Source of the DNA: a virus
Lineage: Duplodnaviria > Heunggongvirae > Uroviricota > Caudoviricetes
DNA: 45,327 bases
IMG/VR virus record: IMGVR_UViG_2737471992_000006
Direction: 5' to 3' (one strand)
A program made the position numbers and the translations under genes. Below the pieces are notes generated by a model. The model was given only the letters and a program-made list of their open reading frames with translations, searched no databases and was not told the DNA's origin. Within the stretch, counting starts at the first letter, position 1, and each line of letters starts with the position of its first letter. Below, one piece after another: positions 1,127-9,713 of the stretch.

Positions 1127-2224
1127 ATGGCGTACTATAACATAGAGAAACGACTAAAATCCGATGGCACACCACGCTATCGCTGTAATGTGATTATCAA
1201 AGAAAAAGGGGTTATCACTTACAGGGAAAGCAAAACATTCCCTAAACATGCTCATGCCAAAACATGGGGCACACAGAAAGTGATGGAATTAGATCTACAT
1301 GGCATTCCATCATCAAATGCTGTTGACGGGCTTACAGTCCGTGACTTACTACGCAAATATTTAAATGACCCAAATGCCGGAGGTAAAGCAGGCCGTACTA
1401 AAAGATATGTGCTGGAACTACTTATGGATAGTGACATTTCTGCGATCAGACTATCTGAATTAACAGAAAATGACGTAATAGAACATTGCAGGTTGAGAAA
1501 CAACGCCGGTGCAGGTCCAGCTACTGTTAGCCACGATGTTAGTTATCTTGGCAGTGTTCTGGATGCAGCCAAACCTGTATACGGAATTAATTACACATCA
1601 AACCCAGCAAAAGCCGCTCGTCCATATCTACTTAAACTTGGTTTAATTGGTAAATCAAATCGTCGTAATCGTAGACCAGCATCTGATGAACTAGACATGC
1701 TCATTGAAGGCCTTCAACAACGATCTACTCATAAATGCTCAAAAATTCCGTTCGTTGATATCCTCAAATTTTCTGTGTGGTCCTGTATGCGAATCGGAGA
1801 AGTATGCCGGTTACGATGGGAAGATCTCGACCAGGAACAAAAATCTATACTAGTAAGAGACAGGAAAGATCCACGTAAAAAGGAAGGTAACCATATGAAA
1901 GTGGCCTTGCTTGGGGAAGCCTGGGATATCGTCCAACGACAACCCAAAAAATCTGAATTCATTTTTCCATACAACAGCACTTCTGTTACCGCAGGATTTC
2001 AGAGGGTAAGAAGCAAATTAGGTATTAAAGATCTGCGATACCATGATTTGCGTAGAGAAGGGGCAAGTCGCTTATTTGAGGCTGGTTTTAGTATTGAGGA
2101 AGTCGCCCAGGTTACAGGGCATCGTTCATTAAACGTGCTATGGCAGGTATATACCGAACTGTATCCAAAATCTTTACATAATCGTTTTGAAGAACTCCAA
2201 AGGAGCAGAAATAAGACCTCTTGA
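1127..2224 (+). CDS. int: dusA-associated tyrosine integrase (site-specific recombinase)
   Basis: 365 aa; C-terminal catalytic region with R..H..R..Y pattern (LRYHDLRREGASR ... GHRSLNVLWQVYTELY); GAGG Shine-Dalgarno before the ATG; transcribed divergently from the dusA 5' end. Confidence 0.85.
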   Translation: MAYYNIEKRLKSDGTPRYRCNVIIKEKGVITYRESKTFPKHAHAKTWGTQKVMELDLHGIPSSNAVDGLTVRDLLRKYLNDPNAGGKAGRTKRYVLELLMDSDISAIRLSELTENDVIEHCRLRNNAGAGPATVSHDVSYLGSVLDAAKPVYGINYTSNPAKAARPYLLKLGLIGKSNRRNRRPASDELDMLIEGLQQRSTHKCSKIPFVDILKFSVWSCMRIGEVCRLRWEDLDQEQKSILVRDRKDPRKKEGNHMKVALLGEAWDIVQRQPKKSEFIFPYNSTSVTAGFQRVRSKLGIKDLRYHDLRREGASRLFEAGFSIEEVAQVTGHRSLNVLWQVYTELYPKSLHNRFEELQRSRNKTS

Positions 2225-2249
2225 CACTGTTTATTCATACAGTTAAAAA
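2221..2249 (+). promoter_or_regulatory. sigma70-like promoter for dinI (TTGACA -35, 17-nt spacer, TAAAAA -10)
   Basis: Perfect TTGACA at 2221..2226; A/T-rich -10 candidate at 2244..2249; overlaps the LexA boxes. Confidence 0.35.
2225..2244. promoter_or_regulatory. LexA (SOS) box 1, CTGT-N8-ACAG
   Basis: cactgtttattcatacagtt: CTGT at 2227..2230, 8-nt spacer, ACAG at 2239..2242, inside the promoter spacer. Confidence 0.5.
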
Positions 2250-2252
2250 TAA

Positions 2253-2272
2253 TACTGTATACAAACACAGTA
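2253..2272. promoter_or_regulatory. LexA (SOS) box 2, near-consensus
   Basis: tactgtatacaaacacagta matches the TACTGT-N8-ACAGTA consensus; lies 14 nt upstream of the dinI ATG. Confidence 0.65.
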
Positions 2273-2285
2273 TAGAGGGATTTTT

Positions 2286-2534
2286 ATGCGTATTGAGATC
2301 TGCATAGCCAAAGAGAAAATGACTAAAATGCCAAACGGTGCTGTGGATGCGTTAAAGGAAGAATTAACTCGACGCATCAGTAAGCGTTATGACGATGTAG
2401 AGGTGATCGTAAAAGCCACCAGCAACGATGGCCTTTCTGTTACGCGCACCGCCGATAAAGATTCAGCTAAAACTTTTGTTCAGGAAACTCTGAAAGATAC
2501 CTGGGAGTCTGCTGACGAGTGGTTTGTTCATTAA
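2286..2534 (+). CDS. dinI: DinI-family DNA-damage-inducible protein (RecA modulator)
   Basis: 82 aa, acidic C-terminus typical of DinI; GAGGG Shine-Dalgarno; two LexA boxes upstream. Confidence 0.85.
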
Positions 2535-2600
2535 TTAATACGTAAAATCGATAACGGCTGGAAATCATTCAATACTCGCACTATCGGAAGTTCACCAGCC

Positions 2601-2640
2601 AGCCGCAGTATTCTGCCATGACAAGTTGCTGCGGCTTTTT
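2601..2640 (+). terminator. candidate intrinsic terminator after dinI
   Basis: Inverted repeat agccgcag / ctgcggct followed by TTTTT; the loop is long (20 nt), so the call is weak. Confidence 0.3.
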
Positions 2641-2644
2641 ATGT

Positions 2645-2932
2645 TTAACGGATAAACAGCCAGACCAGCAGACACGCCATCACCGGCACAGCAAAATCCA
2701 TCAGGCTTGCTACATCCCACACGCGCGGATCAAAACCGCCCCACCACGGCATATTCATACGCTTGCCATGTCCGAACATTTCAATCCAGCGATATTCTGC
2801 CTGGGTGTGTTCACGCGCAATGAAGAACGTACAACCGGCTATCGCCCCGTAAGCCCAGTTTCCGGTAAAAAGACCAGCCAGTACCTGCACCGCTATGGCA
2901 CAAAGCGCATGAAGTATCGACGTGATATCCAT
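2645..2932 (-). CDS. small hydrophobic membrane protein at the tail-fibre operon end (unknown function)
   Basis: 95 aa with hydrophobic segments at both ends; same strand and tight spacing after the stf-coupled ORF. Confidence 0.5.
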   Translation of the reverse strand: MDITSILHALCAIAVQVLAGLFTGNWAYGAIAGCTFFIAREHTQAEYRWIEMFGHGKRMNMPWWGGFDPRVWDVASLMDFAVPVMACLLVWLFIR

Positions 2933-2941
2933 CTGCTATCC

Positions 2942-3220
2942 TTAAAACCACTCCCTGAGCGGGCGCTCTGGTGTAACCACCCACTCACGGAACACGGAAT
3001 CATCAAATCCATCGTCAAGAAGACGGATATTAACAAAGTACCCTTCGTTTCGCGTGTATTCTGGTTCTCCGTCATCAGGAACATCTGTCTCCCTGAACGT
3101 AAAACCAATCTCATCAACCAGAACGGCATTCTGCAGCTCTTCGTCCTCTTCCCAGTTAAGTTTCCTGAGAAATGCCCTGAAATCTGCTTTATCACTGAAA
3201 CGCAACGTGAAATCTCTCAC
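2942..3220 (-). CDS. hypothetical acidic protein translationally coupled to stf (possible fibre chaperone or accessory protein)
   Basis: 92 aa; GTG start at 3220 overlaps the stf TGA (GTGA); it sits where lambda has tfa but does not resemble lambda Tfa. Confidence 0.45.
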   Translation of the reverse strand: MRDFTLRFSDKADFRAFLRKLNWEEDEELQNAVLVDEIGFTFRETDVPDDGEPEYTRNEGYFVNIRLLDDGFDDSVFREWVVTPERPLREWF

Positions 3221-5283
3221 TCCACAACCTCCCCAAGCTGCGCATCTGTTAGCTCTTTATGCCAGAGACGAAAATTCCTCACATGCCCAAATAAATGGCG
3301 TAATCCTGCTGTAGTTTGTCCACCAATGCGAATGGTTGCTGTACTCCGGATATATTCCCATTTGGTTTTAGTTTCGCTGCTTAACTTACCGTTACTGACT
3401 ACACATGTGGACCGTTCGGACTTTACCCGCATACCAATAAGCATTTTTTCCAGCCCGGCATTTTCATTTATTCGTCGGTCTGAACCACCTATATCGCAAT
3501 ACGGAAAACCGTCGTACCCACCTGATGAACCAAACCCCATTACGATCCCCGCTCCGGTTTGATGACCGCCGGTATCAAAAACACGCGGCGCTACATTTGG
3601 CGTTTTATACCAGTTCTTATGTACCTCACAAAGAACCGTAAAAGGAAGATTATAAAGGTTATTCTTGATTGGGACTGTCACCATATCGCTTGCCCGCGTT
3701 GCCGGTGTCGTCCCCGTAACAATAAAAGATGATGTGCCTGTACCAGCCTCAATCTGTGGAGTGGTTACATCGAGATAATCCCCTGATGCAACCATCTGCC
3801 CTGTATCCGGAGAATACTGGACAAAACCACCAACCGTATTTTCTGTTGTATCTGCTTTTAATGTAGCCTCAAAAAATATCCAGCCAGTTGCATCATCCTT
3901 AACAGACCTTGCTGTAACACGGCTTGTCTGACCTGTCTTGCTAATTATGCGGGTGGTAAGGTTCAGGTTTGCTGCTCCTATTGATGTCCTTACCTCCCCA
4001 TCATAATGTTCAAATAAAATACGAACGGCGATATTATCAACTTCACTTTTTACCCGACAGGATATAGTTACATGCTTTTCGTCCCCTGAAGTATCAACCC
4101 CTCCGGTACTCGAATACAGTCCGATAATGGTATGCGCTTTACTTGTACCAACAATCGAATCCTGTACGACAAACCGGCCATAATTAAACCCGAAACTATC
4201 TGTGCCTGTTTCTGTAACGTCCAGTGAAGTTGACTTATTCCACTTCGAAGGGTCTGTACTGTTCTGGAAGAAGTTCGTTCTTTGTCCCTCAATAAGCAGG
4301 CCATCACACTCAAATCGCGGCTCATTAATTTCCGCCGTTTTCAGTTCGCCAGATTTGTTGATATATGTTGCCGTTGATGCGCGACTGAAATTAACCTGTT
4401 TATCACTGGCAACCTGAACCACATTATCACCAATCTTCACTTTTTTATAACCCGGAGAATAGCCCGTAATCATATCCAGCGAATCATTAAAGGGTATCCA
4501 CACATCCGGCAGCGGCTGTAAAACATATCTGTACGGCTCTGCTGTCTGGTTTGCGTATTCTCTGGCAGCATCTTCACTTGCTTTTGCTGCCGTCTGGCTT
4601 GCTGCCGATGCTTTCGCCGAGTTCGCCGCCGCTGTTTCGCTCACCTTTGCGTTGGCTTCACTGTCTTTGGCATTCGTCTCACTGGTTTTCGCTGCCGTCT
4701 GGCTGGATTTTGCGTTTTTTTCGCTGGCCTTTGTGGCTGTCTCGCTATTTTTCGCGCTGGTTTCTGATTTTTTGGCTGCTGTCGCGGAGTTTGCCGATGC
4801 AGTCTGCGAGGCCGCTGCCGCCTGTGCGCTGTTAGCTGCATTCGTTTCTGAGGTTTTCGCCGCATTCTTCGATGAGGCTGCTGCCGTTTCGGATTTCTTT
4901 GCCGCCGCTGCACTCTGTGATGACGCTCCGGCATGACGTGCCACTTCATTCACCATCAGCTCAAAACGGCGCAGTGCCTCCGGACGGGCATCATCCTCCG
5001 TCATGGCACCGAGAAAATCATTCAGCGTACCTGGTCTGGAACCTTCATAGACGGTAATGGTCCCGGCATGTGAAGGTGGAAAACCTTCAACCAGCAGGGT
5101 GACGCTGTACTGACCATGCTCAACATCCATGCTGTAACGCCCGGCTTCATCCGGATTTTCAGAGGCCACCGTGTTCACCAGTACCGTGGTGCTGTTACGC
5201 TTTGCCTTCAGTTGAATAGTGCAGTTCTGTATTGGTTTTCCCGCACCATCTTTCAGCACACCTGAGATTTTTACTGCTGCCAT
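3217..5283 (-). CDS. stf: side tail fibre protein (lambda Stf-like N-terminus, divergent C-terminal receptor-binding region)
   Basis: N-terminal ~120 aa closely resemble lambda Stf (MAAVKISGVLKDG...TITVYEGSRPGTLNDFL); ATG at 5283 preceded by GGAG; central Ala/Ser/Thr/Lys repeats; C-terminus resembles a lectin/LamG-like jelly-roll (my reading). Confidence 0.85.
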   Translation of the reverse strand: MAAVKISGVLKDGAGKPIQNCTIQLKAKRNSTTVLVNTVASENPDEAGRYSMDVEHGQYSVTLLVEGFPPSHAGTITVYEGSRPGTLNDFLGAMTEDDARPEALRRFELMVNEVARHAGASSQSAAAAKKSETAAASSKNAAKTSETNAANSAQAAAASQTASANSATAAKKSETSAKNSETATKASEKNAKSSQTAAKTSETNAKDSEANAKVSETAAANSAKASAASQTAAKASEDAAREYANQTAEPYRYVLQPLPDVWIPFNDSLDMITGYSPGYKKVKIGDNVVQVASDKQVNFSRASTATYINKSGELKTAEINEPRFECDGLLIEGQRTNFFQNSTDPSKWNKSTSLDVTETGTDSFGFNYGRFVVQDSIVGTSKAHTIIGLYSSTGGVDTSGDEKHVTISCRVKSEVDNIAVRILFEHYDGEVRTSIGAANLNLTTRIISKTGQTSRVTARSVKDDATGWIFFEATLKADTTENTVGGFVQYSPDTGQMVASGDYLDVTTPQIEAGTGTSSFIVTGTTPATRASDMVTVPIKNNLYNLPFTVLCEVHKNWYKTPNVAPRVFDTGGHQTGAGIVMGFGSSGGYDGFPYCDIGGSDRRINENAGLEKMLIGMRVKSERSTCVVSNGKLSSETKTKWEYIRSTATIRIGGQTTAGLRHLFGHVRNFRLWHKELTDAQLGEVVE
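4560..4950. repeat. in-frame tandem repeats encoding the KxSExxAxxS shaft of Stf
   Basis: Reiterated gc-rich units produce long spurious ORFs in all other frames here. Confidence 0.6.
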
Positions 5284-5347
5284 ATCCACTCCACAAAAAA
5301 GCCCGCCTGAACCGGCGGGCTGTCATAACACTGTGTTACCTGGCTAA

Positions 5348-5947
5348 TCAGAACTTATAACCGACACCCACGATGAAACCGTCAGCGCGCCAGTCGCCAC
5401 TGCCGGAGCCTTCATAAGCAATATCAATGGCCACGGATTCGGTCGGGTTAAACTGCACGCCAGCCCCCCACGCCAGAGACGTGTTGCTGTGGCGATCGTC
5501 ATCACTTCCGGTCAGCACGTCGTGCGTTTTCCCCTTGTTGTCAGTTACGCGGAGATAATCCCCGGAGAACGTCGAAACACGGCTGTAAGCCACACCAGCC
5601 ATCGCATACGCGCTGAACCATTCATTCACGCGCACAGACGGCCCCGCCATTACGCTGAACCAGCGGTTACGCACGGAATCTTCATGCCAGCGGGTATCGC
5701 TGTAGTGCGTTTTTTTCTCATCTTCAGCATTGGCATAACTGAAGGACGTAATCAGCCCCAGCGTGTCCGTAAACTCATAACGGTATTTCACGTTAATCCC
5801 GTTCAGATTATCGCTGCCGGGAGCGTTCGTACGGGCATGAAGATACCCTGTGCTCAGTGTGGACTGATGTTCAGACGCCCATGCAGGCGCACCGGATACG
5901 GACAGACAGATGGCTGCGGACAAAATGGCTGCACAAACTTTACGCAT
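5348..5947 (-). CDS. lom: Lom outer-membrane protein (Ail/Lom family)
   Basis: 199 aa, near-identical in pattern to lambda Lom (signal peptide, ...GFIVGVGYKF end). Confidence 0.9.
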   Translation of the reverse strand: MRKVCAAILSAAICLSVSGAPAWASEHQSTLSTGYLHARTNAPGSDNLNGINVKYRYEFTDTLGLITSFSYANAEDEKKTHYSDTRWHEDSVRNRWFSVMAGPSVRVNEWFSAYAMAGVAYSRVSTFSGDYLRVTDNKGKTHDVLTGSDDDRHSNTSLAWGAGVQFNPTESVAIDIAYEGSGSGDWRADGFIVGVGYKF

Positions 5948-6014: not shown

Positions 6015-9000
6015 TCAGCTAATCGTGATGCCTGCAGTGGCTTTCTTCATCACAACAACCAGCAAATCGCTGATACTTGCTGTGGGATACCAGCCATTTA
6101 CCCACCATGCTGATACAGAAAACTCCAGCGTCATGTGGCCGCGACCAGCAGGCATATCAATAACACCACTGTAAACCAGCGTATTATCCAGCGCGGTACG
6201 GTTATAAATTTCAGCACCGTTTTTCTTCACTATCAGGCGGCATGACGAATAAGTATCGCTGTTCTCCTGCTCATGTCTGGCACCGCTGAAAGCCACCGCC
6301 GGAATAACAATCTGCCGGTTAAACGGCTGATCGTCATAAACCCTGACGGTAATGGTTCCTGATGGCCAACGCTTCGGTGCACGGGAGTCACGAGGGAAAG
6401 CCTTACCCACTGTTTTAACGAGATCGCCTTCAATCTGGTTTGCAGACAGTTTCCCTCTGATGACACAGTTCTCGTTAATGGTGACATTATTGAGCGTGCC
6501 GGTATTCGCCGTGATGGCTCCACTGATATCCGCATTGCGGGCTGTCAGCCTGCCATCCGGCGTCAGGGAAAACGTAGGAGGATTGCCGGATGACGTGATG
6601 CTCACCGCAAACAGTCGCTTCAGGAACACGTCGTTCATGAACAGCTGATTCCCCTGCGCCACAAACAGCGGCGTGGTGTTGCCGTTCTCCGGGGTAATCA
6701 TCGCGATACGGTCCGCCTGCAGCAGAATACTGCTCAGCGTCTGACCATCAACATCCTCAATCCCCGCGCCAATCCCGGCCACATAGGGAATACCGTTTTT
6801 TGTTTTCTGCACCTTCAGCATATACATGGCATTCAGCTCATTGCGCGTGTCTGACTGAACCCGCTGGATTTGCTGTATGGTCACGGCCTGGTCACCCAGC
6901 TTTTTATCCGTGGTCGAGGTAATTTCACTCCCTTTTTTATCCACGTACTGGCGGACCTGTGCTATCTGTCGGGCGTTTTCTGACTGCCCCTGGCTGACAG
7001 TCTGTGAGATTTCACTGCTCACCCGGTCCACTTTCTGGCTCACCTGCGCGATGGCCAGTGTCTGGTCCTCATTCTTTTTCGCAACCAGCTGCGTGAGGCT
7101 GTTTTCCGCCTTCCCGATTTTCCGGGTCACTTCTGCGATATCCGTGTCCATCCGCTGACGGATATCTTCTTCCAGTTGCGTGACCTCCGTACGCAGCGCT
7201 GAAGCATCAATGCGCTCTTTCAGTGCCTGGCCCAGAAGCGTCTCATCTATCAGCCCCCGGAAAATTTCCAGATACCCTTCACCATCATTGCTGGGCTGCC
7301 CGCTGGCTTCCACAAAAGCAGATTTTCCCACCAGGTTGACGCTTCGCACGTAAAACCAGAAATCCGTCCCCGGCTTAATCCGGCTCCCCTGGACAGTCCA
7401 CTGACTGCCGGTCCCCAGATAACGGGCAGATTTTTCCACCTGTGCTGTGTTCGTGATGCGTTTTTCTGAGAACCAGAATTCAAACTGTACCGTCGGGTCA
7501 TACACCGCAAGACGCGGGACCGCCGTTATCTGAAAATACCCCGGCGTCAGCTCAATGGTGGCGGGTTTTGCAGGTGCGTTAATCCGGAACGATACCGACG
7601 CCGGATCGCCCTGCTGTCCCCGGGCATTTACCGCCCGGACCGTCAGCGTGTAACGCCCCAGCGCCAGCTGCCTGAAGCGGTAAGTGGTTTCCGCCGTCCG
7701 GGCCGTGCTGACCAGCCGCTCACTGCCGTCATCCGCTGTTACGGTCAGACGGAGCAGGAAGCTCACGCCCTTCACCACCTTCGGCGTGTCCCAGCGCGCC
7801 AGCACCTGATATTCCCCGCTGTCTGCGGTAACTTCGGCGGTCAGGTGCTGCACCGCTGGCGGCGTGACACCATTCACCGTGCCGCTCTGGTCGCCGTCAA
7901 AGTGCGCCCCGTTATCCACGATGGCCTCTTTTGCCGGTACATGCTGCACGGCGGTGATGGCATGCGTACCGTCGTCATTCTCACGGATACTCACACAGCG
8001 GAACAGGCGCTGGCGCAGCGTCGGCAGCTTCAGCCCCCACACGCTGTATCCGGCAACGCCGTCAGGAACACGGCTCACTTTCACCTTCACACCGTCGGTG
8101 ACGGACTGGACCTCCACGCTGACCGGATTCCCACTTCCGTCAACCAGGCTTATCAGCGTGGTGCCGGAGGATGACAGCATGATTTCACGGTCGAGCGTCA
8201 GCGTCCGGGTCTGGCTGTTCACCGCCAGCACGCGACCACCGGTGCTGATACCGGCATAGTCATCATCACAGATTTCAATGACATCGCCCGGCACATGGCG
8301 AAGCCCTTCAGCACCCACGCTGAAGTCCACGGTCTGCGTTTCCAGCAGCTCTGTTTTAATCAGCCACAGCCCGGCGCGGTGTGCCTGCCCCCGGCTGGTA
8401 CAGCCAAAGGCATCCATCTTCGTGACATTACGACCGTAACGGGCAATGGCCCGCGTGTCCTCCACAAGCTCTGTCGCCGTCTCCCAGCCGTTATCCGGAT
8501 CAATCCAGTTCACCTCAACGGCATTATGACGGTCCTTCAGGGCGCTGAAGCTGTAGCGGAACGGCGCGCCATCATCCGGCATCACCACATTACTGCGGTT
8601 ATAGGTCCACACCTTATCCGACGGTCGGTCCTGCACGAACGTCAGCGTCTGCCCGTTCCATACCGGCATACAGCGCATCGCCGAGCAGAAATCACTGAGC
8701 ACATCCCACGCCTTGCGCTGTGTGGTCAGGTAAGCGTTACAGGTGATGCGCGGCTCCGTGCCACCAAAGCCATCCGGCACTGACTGGTCGCAGTACTGGC
8801 CGATGACATACAGCGCCCATTTATCCACATCCGCCGCACCAAGACGTTTCCCCATGCCGTAGCGCGGGTGGGTCAGCATATCCCACAGACACCATGCCAT
8901 GTTGTTGCTGTATGCTGGCTTAAACGTTCCGTCCCAGATACCGCTGTATTGCCGCGTCTGCGGGTTATAGTTCGACGGCACCTGCAGAATGCGCCCGCGA

Positions 9001-9713
9001 AGATGATAATTACGGCTCACCTGCTGGCTGCCGAACTGCTCCGAGTCCACCTGCACGCCGACCAGTGCCGTGTTCGGGTAGCACTGTTTCACATCGATGA
9101 TTTCGGTGTATGACGACCAGAGCGTTTTGTTCTGCAGCTGGTCTGTGGTGCTGTCCGGCGTCATCCTGCGCATCCGGATATTAAACGGGCGCGGCGGCAG
9201 GTTACCCACCACCACCGAGGCCAGATACTGCGAGGTGGTTTTGCCCTTAATGGTGATGTCTTTTTCCGTCACCCAGCCACCGTTACGCTGTATCTGAACC
9301 AGCAGGCGGACTTCCGACGGATTCCTGTCACCCTTTGAGGTGGTTTCCACCAGTGCCTGCACGCCGAAAGTAAAACGCAGTCGGTCAATGTTTGCCGACG
9401 TGATGGCCCGGGTGATCGGCGTGTCATATTTCACTTCCGTACCCAGCACCGTCTCGGAGCCGGAGGATTCAAATCCCTCCGGCGGAGTCTGCTCCTGCTC
9501 ACCTGCCCGGAACACCACCGTGACACCGGAGATGTTGGTATTCCCCTCAGTGTCCAGCACCGGCGTACTGTTCAGCAGCACGCTTTTTAATCCATCCACC
9601 GGACCTTCAATCGGCCCTTCACTGATGGCATCAATCACACTCAGCAACTGCGTAGATTTCAGGTTGTCCTTCGCTTCGCGCGGGGTATGCCCCTTACTGC
9701 TGCCTTTACCCAT
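6015..9713 (-). CDS. J: host-specificity / central tail fibre protein J
   Basis: 1232 aa, collinear with lambda gpJ from [15 protein letters not shown] through the C-terminal receptor-binding region. Confidence 0.9.

Follow-up and report, generated by a model that had tools for sequence, protein, structure and literature searches.

What does a lambdoid prophage use to recognize its host when its side tail fibre begins like that of lambda and the gene behind it is not tfa? The question is raised by IMG/VR virus record IMGVR_UViG_2737471992_000006, a stretch of 45,327 nucleotides (nt) hereafter called the window, in which the side tail fibre gene stf is followed by two small genes, one for an acidic protein of 92 amino acids (aa) and one for a membrane protein of 95 aa. 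An earlier interpretation, referred to here as the sequence-only reading, had Stf ending in a lectin-like tip of about 250 residues, saw the two small genes as standing in the place of Tfa, and took this to imply a different receptor and possibly a different fibre maturation mechanism or an exclusion function. We find that the locus belongs to a family of fibre modules defined by the protein families phrog_1419 and phrog_1361, and that it represents a common variant of this family without a distal fibre gene. The explanation that we favour, to which we assign a probability of about 0.6, combines a mosaic Stf, a 92-aa accessory of its C-terminal module, and a 95-aa inner-membrane factor of the lysogenic-conversion or superinfection-exclusion kind.

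The N-terminal part of Stf is that of a lambda side tail fibre, as had been proposed. Residues 5-134 match Pfam PF08400 (phage_tail_N; 1.4e-66), and lambda orf-401, the N-terminus of lambda Stf, aligns with residues 3-159 at 74% identity (E 5e-75). The shaft that follows carries a repeated AAKxSETxA motif and gives repeat-level matches to the lambda Stf shaft. In overlapping 400-nt windows it has an AT skew of -0.42 to -0.56 and a GC content of 50-57%, and its composition suggests that it is probably a coiled coil. The lambda-type N-terminus would anchor Stf to the tail, with the repetitive shaft leading on to a globular module.

That module is not the tip of lambda. The C-terminal ~430 aa of Stf have no similarity to lambda orf-314 by BLASTP (E 1.4), in agreement with the earlier claim of a different tip. 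A Pfam scan of Stf detected no orf-314 or T4 gp37-type tip domain, nor the C-terminal intramolecular chaperone Peptidase_S74 (PF13884). Instead, the family phrog_1419 (‘tail protein’) matches the module end to end (E=0), with the best stretch spanning aa 207-689 of a 690-aa open reading frame (ORF) that starts at a GTG codon. The module opens with a conserved linker (aa 256-335), which is also present in Aeromonas and Synechococcus phage fibres, and continues with a domain (aa 336-520) that resembles the head spike fibre of a gene transfer agent (GTA). The NCBIfam model NF048003 (GTA_spike_fiber) scores 65.9 bits on aa 332-533 against a cut-off of 36, and aa ~299-541 are homologous to residues 44-281 of the RcGTA protein Rcc01080 (PDB 6TB9), with an E value of 6.6e-4 for the single sequence and 3.4e-16 for a nine-sequence profile. 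Rcc01080 binds Rhodobacter capsular polysaccharide (PMC7296036; PMC10218006). The architectures differ: Rcc01080 decorates the head as a single chain held by its N-terminal peptide, whereas in Stf the domain forms part of a tail fibre, precedes a LamG-like domain and has the 92-aa protein as a partner.

The end domain (aa 521-688) is basic, with an isoelectric point (pI) of 9.2, and resembles the ConA/LamG (galectin) group. Searches with the C-terminal 187 aa returned Laminin_G_3 (PF13385) for Stf and for each of eight diverged homologues (9/9; E 6e-6 to 0.12), at the same profile positions, as the sole match in eight of the nine sequences and the best match in the ninth. Each of these matches is below threshold, at 14.8 bits in Stf against a cut-off of 27.6 and at up to 26.8 bits among the nine sequences. 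For phage IrisVonRoten (Bas32), the BASEL paper describes Gp22 as the proximal fibre, which bears a protruding galectin-like domain at its C-terminal end and to which the T-shaped distal fibre, Gp24, is attached. Another homologue, ORF137 (‘ltpA’) of AKFV33, was identified in virions by mass spectrometry and runs at about or above its predicted size; the AKFV33 proteomics covered only four large proteins and is silent on ORF136. The fibre type of Stf is therefore widespread and already described. The lectin/LamG-type tip of the sequence-only reading was right in kind, as the nine LamG matches, Rcc01080 and Gp22 indicate, and wrong in extent, since the module comprises two domains over ~430 aa rather than ~250 aa. 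Its GC content of about 42-48% (positions 3220-4518), against 52-57% in the N-terminal part of stf and in the 95-aa gene, fits acquisition of the module from elsewhere.

Variation within the module is concentrated in two places. We compared 147 fibre-module sequences (IMG/VR prophage and phage loci together with the window), 53 of them distinct. The linker is well conserved, with a mean pairwise identity of 0.86, a minimum of 0.69 and only 3 clusters at 80% identity. The GTA-like domain falls to a mean of 0.53 and a minimum of 0.22, and a patch of the LamG-like domain (aa 579-640) to a mean of 0.45 and a minimum of 0.11, with 10 clusters at 80% identity in each case. Several alleles are only 30-53% identical to the fibre of the window exactly across aa 339-519, while matching it at ~100% identity N-terminal to this stretch and at 70-100% C-terminal to it. 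Residues 336-520 thus behave as a cassette swapped between near-identical prophages, a pattern typical of receptor-binding determinants. Homology to Rcc01080 together with this cassette-like hypervariability leads us to presume that aa 336-520 determine glycan-binding specificity, and we infer that the two variable surfaces bind a variable surface glycan. The ligand would be a surface polysaccharide of the O-antigen or capsule type and not OmpC as for lambda.

The module is found in 221 phage records, and at least 80% of its length is covered in 201 of them. Identity within the group is 35-65% over the full length (61% for IrisVonRoten, 54.5% for phage 21 and 36% for AKFV33), and a pairwise comparison of modules gave values of 39-59%. 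Carriers include phage 21, Stx phages, the T1-like phage tinuso, the Dhillonvirus KarlBarth, the Nonagvirus JenP1, and the T5-like phages EC100, AKFV33 and IrisVonRoten, as well as some rV5-like phages (Gotham). In rV5 itself (DQ832317, 6200-10018), the ORF 41 fibre ends without the GTA/LamG module and the small gene is absent too; in Gotham, FFH2 and other rV5-like phages both are present. The module has therefore been exchanged within Vequintavirus as well. We had considered rV5 virion proteomics as a source of evidence on the small protein and dropped it, as rV5 proper has neither the module nor the small gene. The LtfA/LtfB fibres of DT57C were likewise set aside as a model for the locus, being of a different, S74-bearing type with no small gene. 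Stf shares with the proximal lateral fibres of the phrog_1419 family the whole-length module, the galectin/LamG-like end and a small gene that overlaps or abuts the fibre stop codon. The N-terminal anchor, in contrast, varies by lineage and is of the lambda type here and of the T5 Ltf type in T5-like phages. The attachment end of Stf thus works like a lambda side fibre, and its business end like the proximal fibre of T1-like, T5-like and Dhillonvirus phages.

The locus occupies the slot of the lambda side tail fibre (J - lom - stf), and it shares with lambda the N-terminal attachment domain, a similar shaft and a coupled downstream gene. However, the C-terminal ~430 aa are unrelated to orf-314, Tfa is missing, and a membrane-protein gene follows. 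With neither the lambda tip nor Tfa, the locus is, strictly speaking, no member of the Stf/Tfa system.

The three ORFs of the sequence-only reading were confirmed at their stated positions, all on the minus strand (Table 1). The two small ones are genuine genes, as each matches a PHROG family (phrog_1361 at 6.8e-41 for the 92-aa protein and phrog_1443 at 1.6e-56 for the 95-aa protein) and is under purifying selection. The GTG start codon of the 92-aa gene (3220-3218) overlaps the TGA stop codon of stf (3219-3217), as the sequence-only reading had described, and a GGAGG lies 8 nt upstream. This GTGA arrangement points to translational coupling, by which the 92-aa protein would be co-translated with Stf. 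The 95-aa gene begins 9 nt past the 92-aa stop and has the Shine-Dalgarno sequence AAGGA.

The 92-aa protein is acidic (pI 4.26) and has the features of a soluble alpha/beta protein; its AlphaFold2 (AF2) model, with a pLDDT of 85, has the order beta-alpha-alpha-beta4-alpha. The proposal that it is not Tfa-like is upheld by the profile checks that we ran: no Pfam family matches it, those of Tfa included, and hhalign gives a probability of 0.09% against lambda Tfa. No relative was found in the PDB. The median ratio of nonsynonymous to synonymous substitution rates (dN/dS), calculated from the IMG/VR prophage loci closest to the window, is 0.36. A HMMER search against 1.84 billion representative sequences gave about 100 clusters at 50% identity, in which all credible hits are small stand-alone proteins; no Rosetta-stone fusion of the 92-aa domain to a fibre was among them. 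Long PKD/TPR-repeat proteins that matched the profile in multiple stretches were rejected as repeat-driven false positives on the basis of Pfam, which calls for caution when this family is mined.

The family phrog_1361 is the obligate genomic partner of the fibre C-terminal module. It occurs in 194 phage records, compared to 221 for the module, and the module lies upstream of it in 80/80 and 72/72 IMG/VR loci of two partly overlapping sets. At every annotated phage locus examined, the start of the small gene overlaps or abuts the stop codon of the module-bearing fibre gene, by a 4-nt overlap, a 1-nt overlap or direct abutment (phage 21, PhiR49_2, tinuso, JenP1, EC100, KarlBarth, Gotham, IrisVonRoten and AKFV33). 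Many of the phages that carry phrog_1361 are strictly virulent, which argues that it serves a virion function and not lysogeny.

In virulent phages and some lambdoid alleles, a third gene located ~10 nt past the small gene encodes a distal fibre, a point beyond the reach of the sequence-only reading. Only the first ~25-40 residues of these distal fibres are conserved (MVTKTVIPxDITxLK); their C-terminal binding domains are unrelated, and one relative's distal fibre bears a Peptidase_S74 chaperone domain. In view of this arrangement, the 92-aa protein might be a structural adaptor or hinge (a ‘knee-cap’ like T4 gp35/gp36) docking the distal onto the proximal fibre, in which case the protein of this prophage would be a leftover or a simple end-cap. 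In tinuso, JenP1, EC100, KarlBarth, IrisVonRoten and AKFV33, as well as in PhiR47_1/PhiR11_1 and in an Escherichia coli dusA-prophage allele, the gene is flanked by those for the proximal and the distal fibre at spacings of ~10 nt, and the likeness of the distal fibres in their first residues alone is what a shared docking partner would leave. The distal fibre gene is nevertheless optional in the phrog_1419 family. Phage 21 lacks it, as does each of the 80 IMG/VR loci closest to the window, 63 of the 72 loci in the second, overlapping set are also without it, and no distal-fibre homologue is present anywhere in the 45-kb window. The 92-aa gene is intact at such loci, with the dN/dS given above. 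The C-terminal L-R-x-W motif of the family, which lies in a low-confidence coil of the model, is invariant, and the PLREW tail is as well conserved at loci that lack a distal fibre gene as at those that have one. The partner of the 92-aa protein must therefore be one that is present in both situations. In Kuravirus-type phages, moreover, the T-shaped distal fibre Gp10 is numbered next to the proximal fibre Gp9, which suggests that no small gene lies between them. We consider an adaptor rather unlikely, and it is the main rival to the role that we prefer.

The obvious candidate for a partner common to both situations is Stf's own C-terminal module, and the 92-aa protein is most likely a dedicated accessory of that module, a chaperone or a cap. 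In this prophage it would act in Tfa's place as a folding and assembly chaperone or as a stoichiometric cap, using its invariant but unstructured PLREW tail to bind some conserved portion of the module, which may be the basic LamG-like end domain. The charges of the two proteins are complementary (pI 4.3 against 9.2 for the end domain). The same charge pattern, a basic domain followed by an overlapping gene for an acidic protein, could be read as a toxin/immunity-like or enzyme/inhibitor pair. We regard such a pair as very improbable, as the only folds that the C-terminal domain matches are of the lectin type (LamG and GTA spike fibre), no family of enzymes or toxins gave a match, and the fibre, to judge from its AKFV33 homologue, is an abundant virion protein. 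As the window has no distal fibre gene, the proximal module itself would have to be the receptor-binding tip.

Several observations weigh against an accessory role for the 92-aa protein. The position of its gene exactly between proximal and distal fibre genes in many phages fits an adaptor equally well, and the BASEL annotation of a homologue is ‘tail fiber protein’, which also favours the adaptor. The RcGTA head-spike fibre, produced recombinantly in E. coli and purified, attached to cells with no such partner present (PMC10218006), so the GTA-like domain alone may not need a chaperone. For either small family, we found no experimental work in the literature.

The 95-aa protein poses a different problem. 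It is hydrophobic (grand average of hydropathy, GRAVY, 0.59), and its AF2 model, with a pLDDT of 93, consists of helices at residues 4-23, 26-53 and 74-94. The median dN/dS is 0.22. The family phrog_1443 comprises 554 clusters at 90% identity, with members in Salmonella, Citrobacter, Leclercia, Aeromonas and Comamonas at 55-66% identity, and its alignment shows a nearly invariant motif, AREHTQAEYRWI...GKRxNMPWWGGFD. In the model, a single face of the membrane carries all of the invariant polar residues (D2, H8, E41, H42, E46 and D79), and the positive-inside rule suggests that this face is the cytoplasmic one.

The presence of a membrane-protein gene after the 92-aa gene, noted in the sequence-only reading, is correct. 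Its assignment to the fibre system is not, because the gene follows many unrelated types of fibre and tailspike. It follows the stf and 92-aa pair in the window and in phage 21, and comes after stf, the small gene and a distal fibre gene in some relatives. In P2-like prophages of Leclercia and Aeromonas it follows S74-type and other fibres, and in the Halomonas phage phiHAP-1 (Hapunavirus) it is the gene that separates tfa from the sheath gene FI. In the Uetakevirus phiv142-3 it comes after the tailspike gene and adjoins the lysis cassette; in Citrobacter and Salmonella it stands after or between pectate-lyase-type spike genes, and in Comamonas after a J-like gene and one small gene. The gene is next to receptor-binding protein (RBP) genes in 10 of the 12 contexts inspected. 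The 95-aa protein is thus independent of fibre type, and at least five lineages of temperate phages have its gene directly behind a fibre or tailspike gene. One exception is a copy near toxin-antitoxin and insertion sequence (IS) genes.

The full-length matches examined come from temperate phages and prophages, and large lytic phages gave only partial ones. The 95-aa protein is absent from the examined virulent phages that have the same fibre and 92-aa module. This difference from the 92-aa protein, which those phages do carry, is the best argument for a lifestyle-linked accessory over an assembly factor. The distribution and position of the gene suggest that the 95-aa protein is most likely an inner-membrane factor of the conversion or exclusion type. 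Produced from the same transcript as Stf, the three-helix protein would use its invariant Asp/His/Glu cluster to act on the cytoplasmic side of the inner membrane.

Genes that lie beside RBP genes in other phages include P2 fun(Z), located between G and FI, the O-antigen conversion genes by the epsilon15 tailspike gene, cor and llp. The 95-aa gene resembles such conversion and exclusion genes in its position just after fibre or tailspike genes. It differs from them in having no sequence or fold relation, in its coupling to late genes with no promoter seen, and in a conservation across genera (55-60% between E. coli and Aeromonas or Comamonas) that is far higher than is usual for such factors.

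A conversion or exclusion role has to be set against a number of findings. Searches of Pfam, NCBIfam, PADLOC and PDB sequences returned nothing for the 95-aa protein, and no specific fold matched it either. A stand-alone chromosomal copy is present in Aeromonas rivipollensis (locus L005, 6001-6309) outside any obvious prophage. A promoter scan of positions 2200-5500 found no sigma-70-like promoter on the minus strand, the strand of the 95-aa gene, and the gene is tightly coupled to late genes, with overlapping codons in several lineages, unlike an autonomously expressed moron.

These last features suggest an alternative in which the protein has a late lytic role tied to the RBPs rather than to lysogeny. 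It might, for example, alter or deplete the polysaccharide receptor and so spare progeny from loss on debris, or it might time lysis in the manner of a holin or antiholin. The gene invariably forms part of the late operon or closes it, and its start codon frequently overlaps the stop codon of the upstream RBP-module gene. In P2-like prophages it is embedded between structural genes and in Salmonella between two tailspike genes. The size and three-transmembrane layout of the protein are those of class I holins. The adjacency to the lysis cassette in phiv142-3 also fits, although that phage has its own holin genes alongside. The protein ends at its third transmembrane segment, without the charged C-terminal tail typical of holins, and its polar loop is unusually conserved, unlike that of holins. 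Lambdoid phages, moreover, have an S/R/Rz lysis cassette of their own, which is as a rule located elsewhere. No holin family in PHROG or Pfam matches the protein, and no endolysin gene lies beside its gene at this locus; on these sequence features and on context we rejected a holin role as unlikely. The absence of the gene from the examined virulent phages with the same fibre module, and its stand-alone chromosomal copies, further argue against a lytic role, which we consider improbable. We also examined the small proteins as possible components of a defence system, a reading that was discarded since PADLOC models gave no meaningful match.

The stand-alone copy in A. rivipollensis has two genes for lipid A acyltransferases on the opposite strand, no more than 2.5 kb away, perhaps by coincidence.

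A different maturation mechanism and an exclusion function, both suggested earlier, stay plausible hypotheses. A more ambitious proposal can be put forward tentatively, at somewhat less than even odds. According to it, phrog_1361 would be a new fibre accessory, neither Tfa nor S74, needed for folding or capping the GTA-spike/LamG module in at least six lineages. The family phrog_1443 would be a new, highly conserved inner-membrane factor travelling with the genes of polysaccharide-targeting RBPs in temperate sipho-, myo- and podoviruses, and changing the envelope or blocking superinfection by means of its membrane-face Asp/His/Glu site.

The locus itself is a routine mosaic of known modules and not surprising. 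The same gene order has already been deposited for phage 21, mEp460, ev243 and PhiR49_2; in phage 21, whose fibre is CPT_21_22, all three genes stand in the same order, the membrane-protein gene among them. In VT1-Sakai, the matching stretch comprises one tail fibre gene plus two annotated as hypothetical (H0004, H0003 and H0002). The segment with the 95-aa and 92-aa genes is covered over at least 80% of its length in 365 of 5,426 complete E. coli genomes (this allele group, about 7%), and partial matches to it occur in 1,847 (34%). What had been presented as an unusual replacement of Tfa is thus a standard three-gene arrangement, and with the same arrangement both common and on deposit, the novelty of the locus is low. 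The mildly interesting point is the function of the two small families, which are abundant and have clear genomic associations. There is also a practical side, as exchange of the Stf tip is the way in which engineered phages and lambda-based delivery particles are given new targets. Transplanting this common fibre type would probably require carrying the 92-aa gene along, and the aa 336-520 cassette and the aa 579-640 patch are the obvious places to change specificity. Phage 21 and the BASEL phage IrisVonRoten offer ready experimental systems.

Table 1. Features of the stf locus and its surroundings (window positions), with the distal fibre genes of relatives (positions in their own loci).
Feature	Position	Strand	Basis or remark
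stf, side tail fibre, 688 aa	3217-5283	minus	ORF
Stf aa 1-134, lambda-like N-terminal tail-attachment domain	4882-5283	minus	Pfam PF08400, lambda orf-401
Stf aa ~115-255, Ala/Ser/Thr/Lys/Glu-rich repetitive shaft	4519-4941	minus	translation, lambda shaft matches
Stf aa 256-335, conserved linker opening the C-terminal module	4279-4518	minus	allele alignment
Stf aa 336-520, GTA head-spike-fibre-like domain, hypervariable cassette	3724-4278	minus	NF048003, PDB 6TB9
Stf aa 521-688, ConA/LamG (galectin)-like end domain	3220-3723	minus	sub-threshold PF13385, published homologue
Stf aa 579-640, variable LamG-like patch	3364-3549		
GTGA start/stop overlap, stf / 92-aa gene	3217-3220	minus	read from sequence
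92-aa acidic protein gene	2942-3220	minus	ORF
95-aa membrane protein gene	2645-2932	minus	ORF
Inverted repeat immediately beyond the 95-aa stop codon (arms of 8 bp, loop of 20 nt)	2601-2636		read from sequence
Terminator-like hairpin between lom and stf	5300-5321	minus	hairpin scan
lom	5348-5947	minus	
J	6015-9713	minus	
DinI-like gene (dinI)	2286-2534	plus	
Tyrosine integrase gene (int)	1127-2224	plus	divergent from dusA
dusA, apparently intact 345-aa ORF	1-1038	minus	
Distal fibre gene, relative L007	3918-4802		
Distal fibre gene, relative L008	3918-4958		
Distal fibre gene, relative L010	4289-5344		
Distal fibre gene, relative L011	5289-7019		
Distal fibre gene, relative L094	6087-7811		
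Distal fibre gene, relative L095	4643-5347		

The three genes close the late (tail) operon, at its 3' end, of an E. coli lambdoid prophage that is inserted at the 5' end of dusA (Table 1). The closest genome, NZ_AP040205, is 99.5% identical across 5.4 kb, and the Prokaryotic Genome Annotation Pipeline (PGAP) calls the same three genes there, with the ATG start of stf that we use. The whole 5.4-kb junction arrangement is covered over at least 80% of its length in only 33 of the 5,426 complete E. coli genomes. In phage 21, a terminator is annotated upstream of stf at the site that corresponds to the hairpin between lom and stf. The inverted repeat past the 95-aa stop lies between the convergent dinI and 95-aa genes and is followed by TTTTT on the plus strand; it is therefore probably the dinI terminator, and it marks the end of the late operon. 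The hairpin scanner accepts loops of up to 8 nt, and this repeat, with its 20-nt loop, was for that reason unreported by it.

Two neighbouring remnants were also observed. PGAP calls a tiny ‘capsid protein’ pseudogene in NZ_AP040205 at the counterpart of window positions 2531-2611. A related dusA prophage (L095) has two Tfa pseudogene fragments (3151-3327 and 4200-4319) and an S-adenosylmethionine (SAM)-methyltransferase gene downstream of its 95-aa gene. The Tfa fragments and the ‘capsid protein’ pseudogene look like scars of earlier module replacements.

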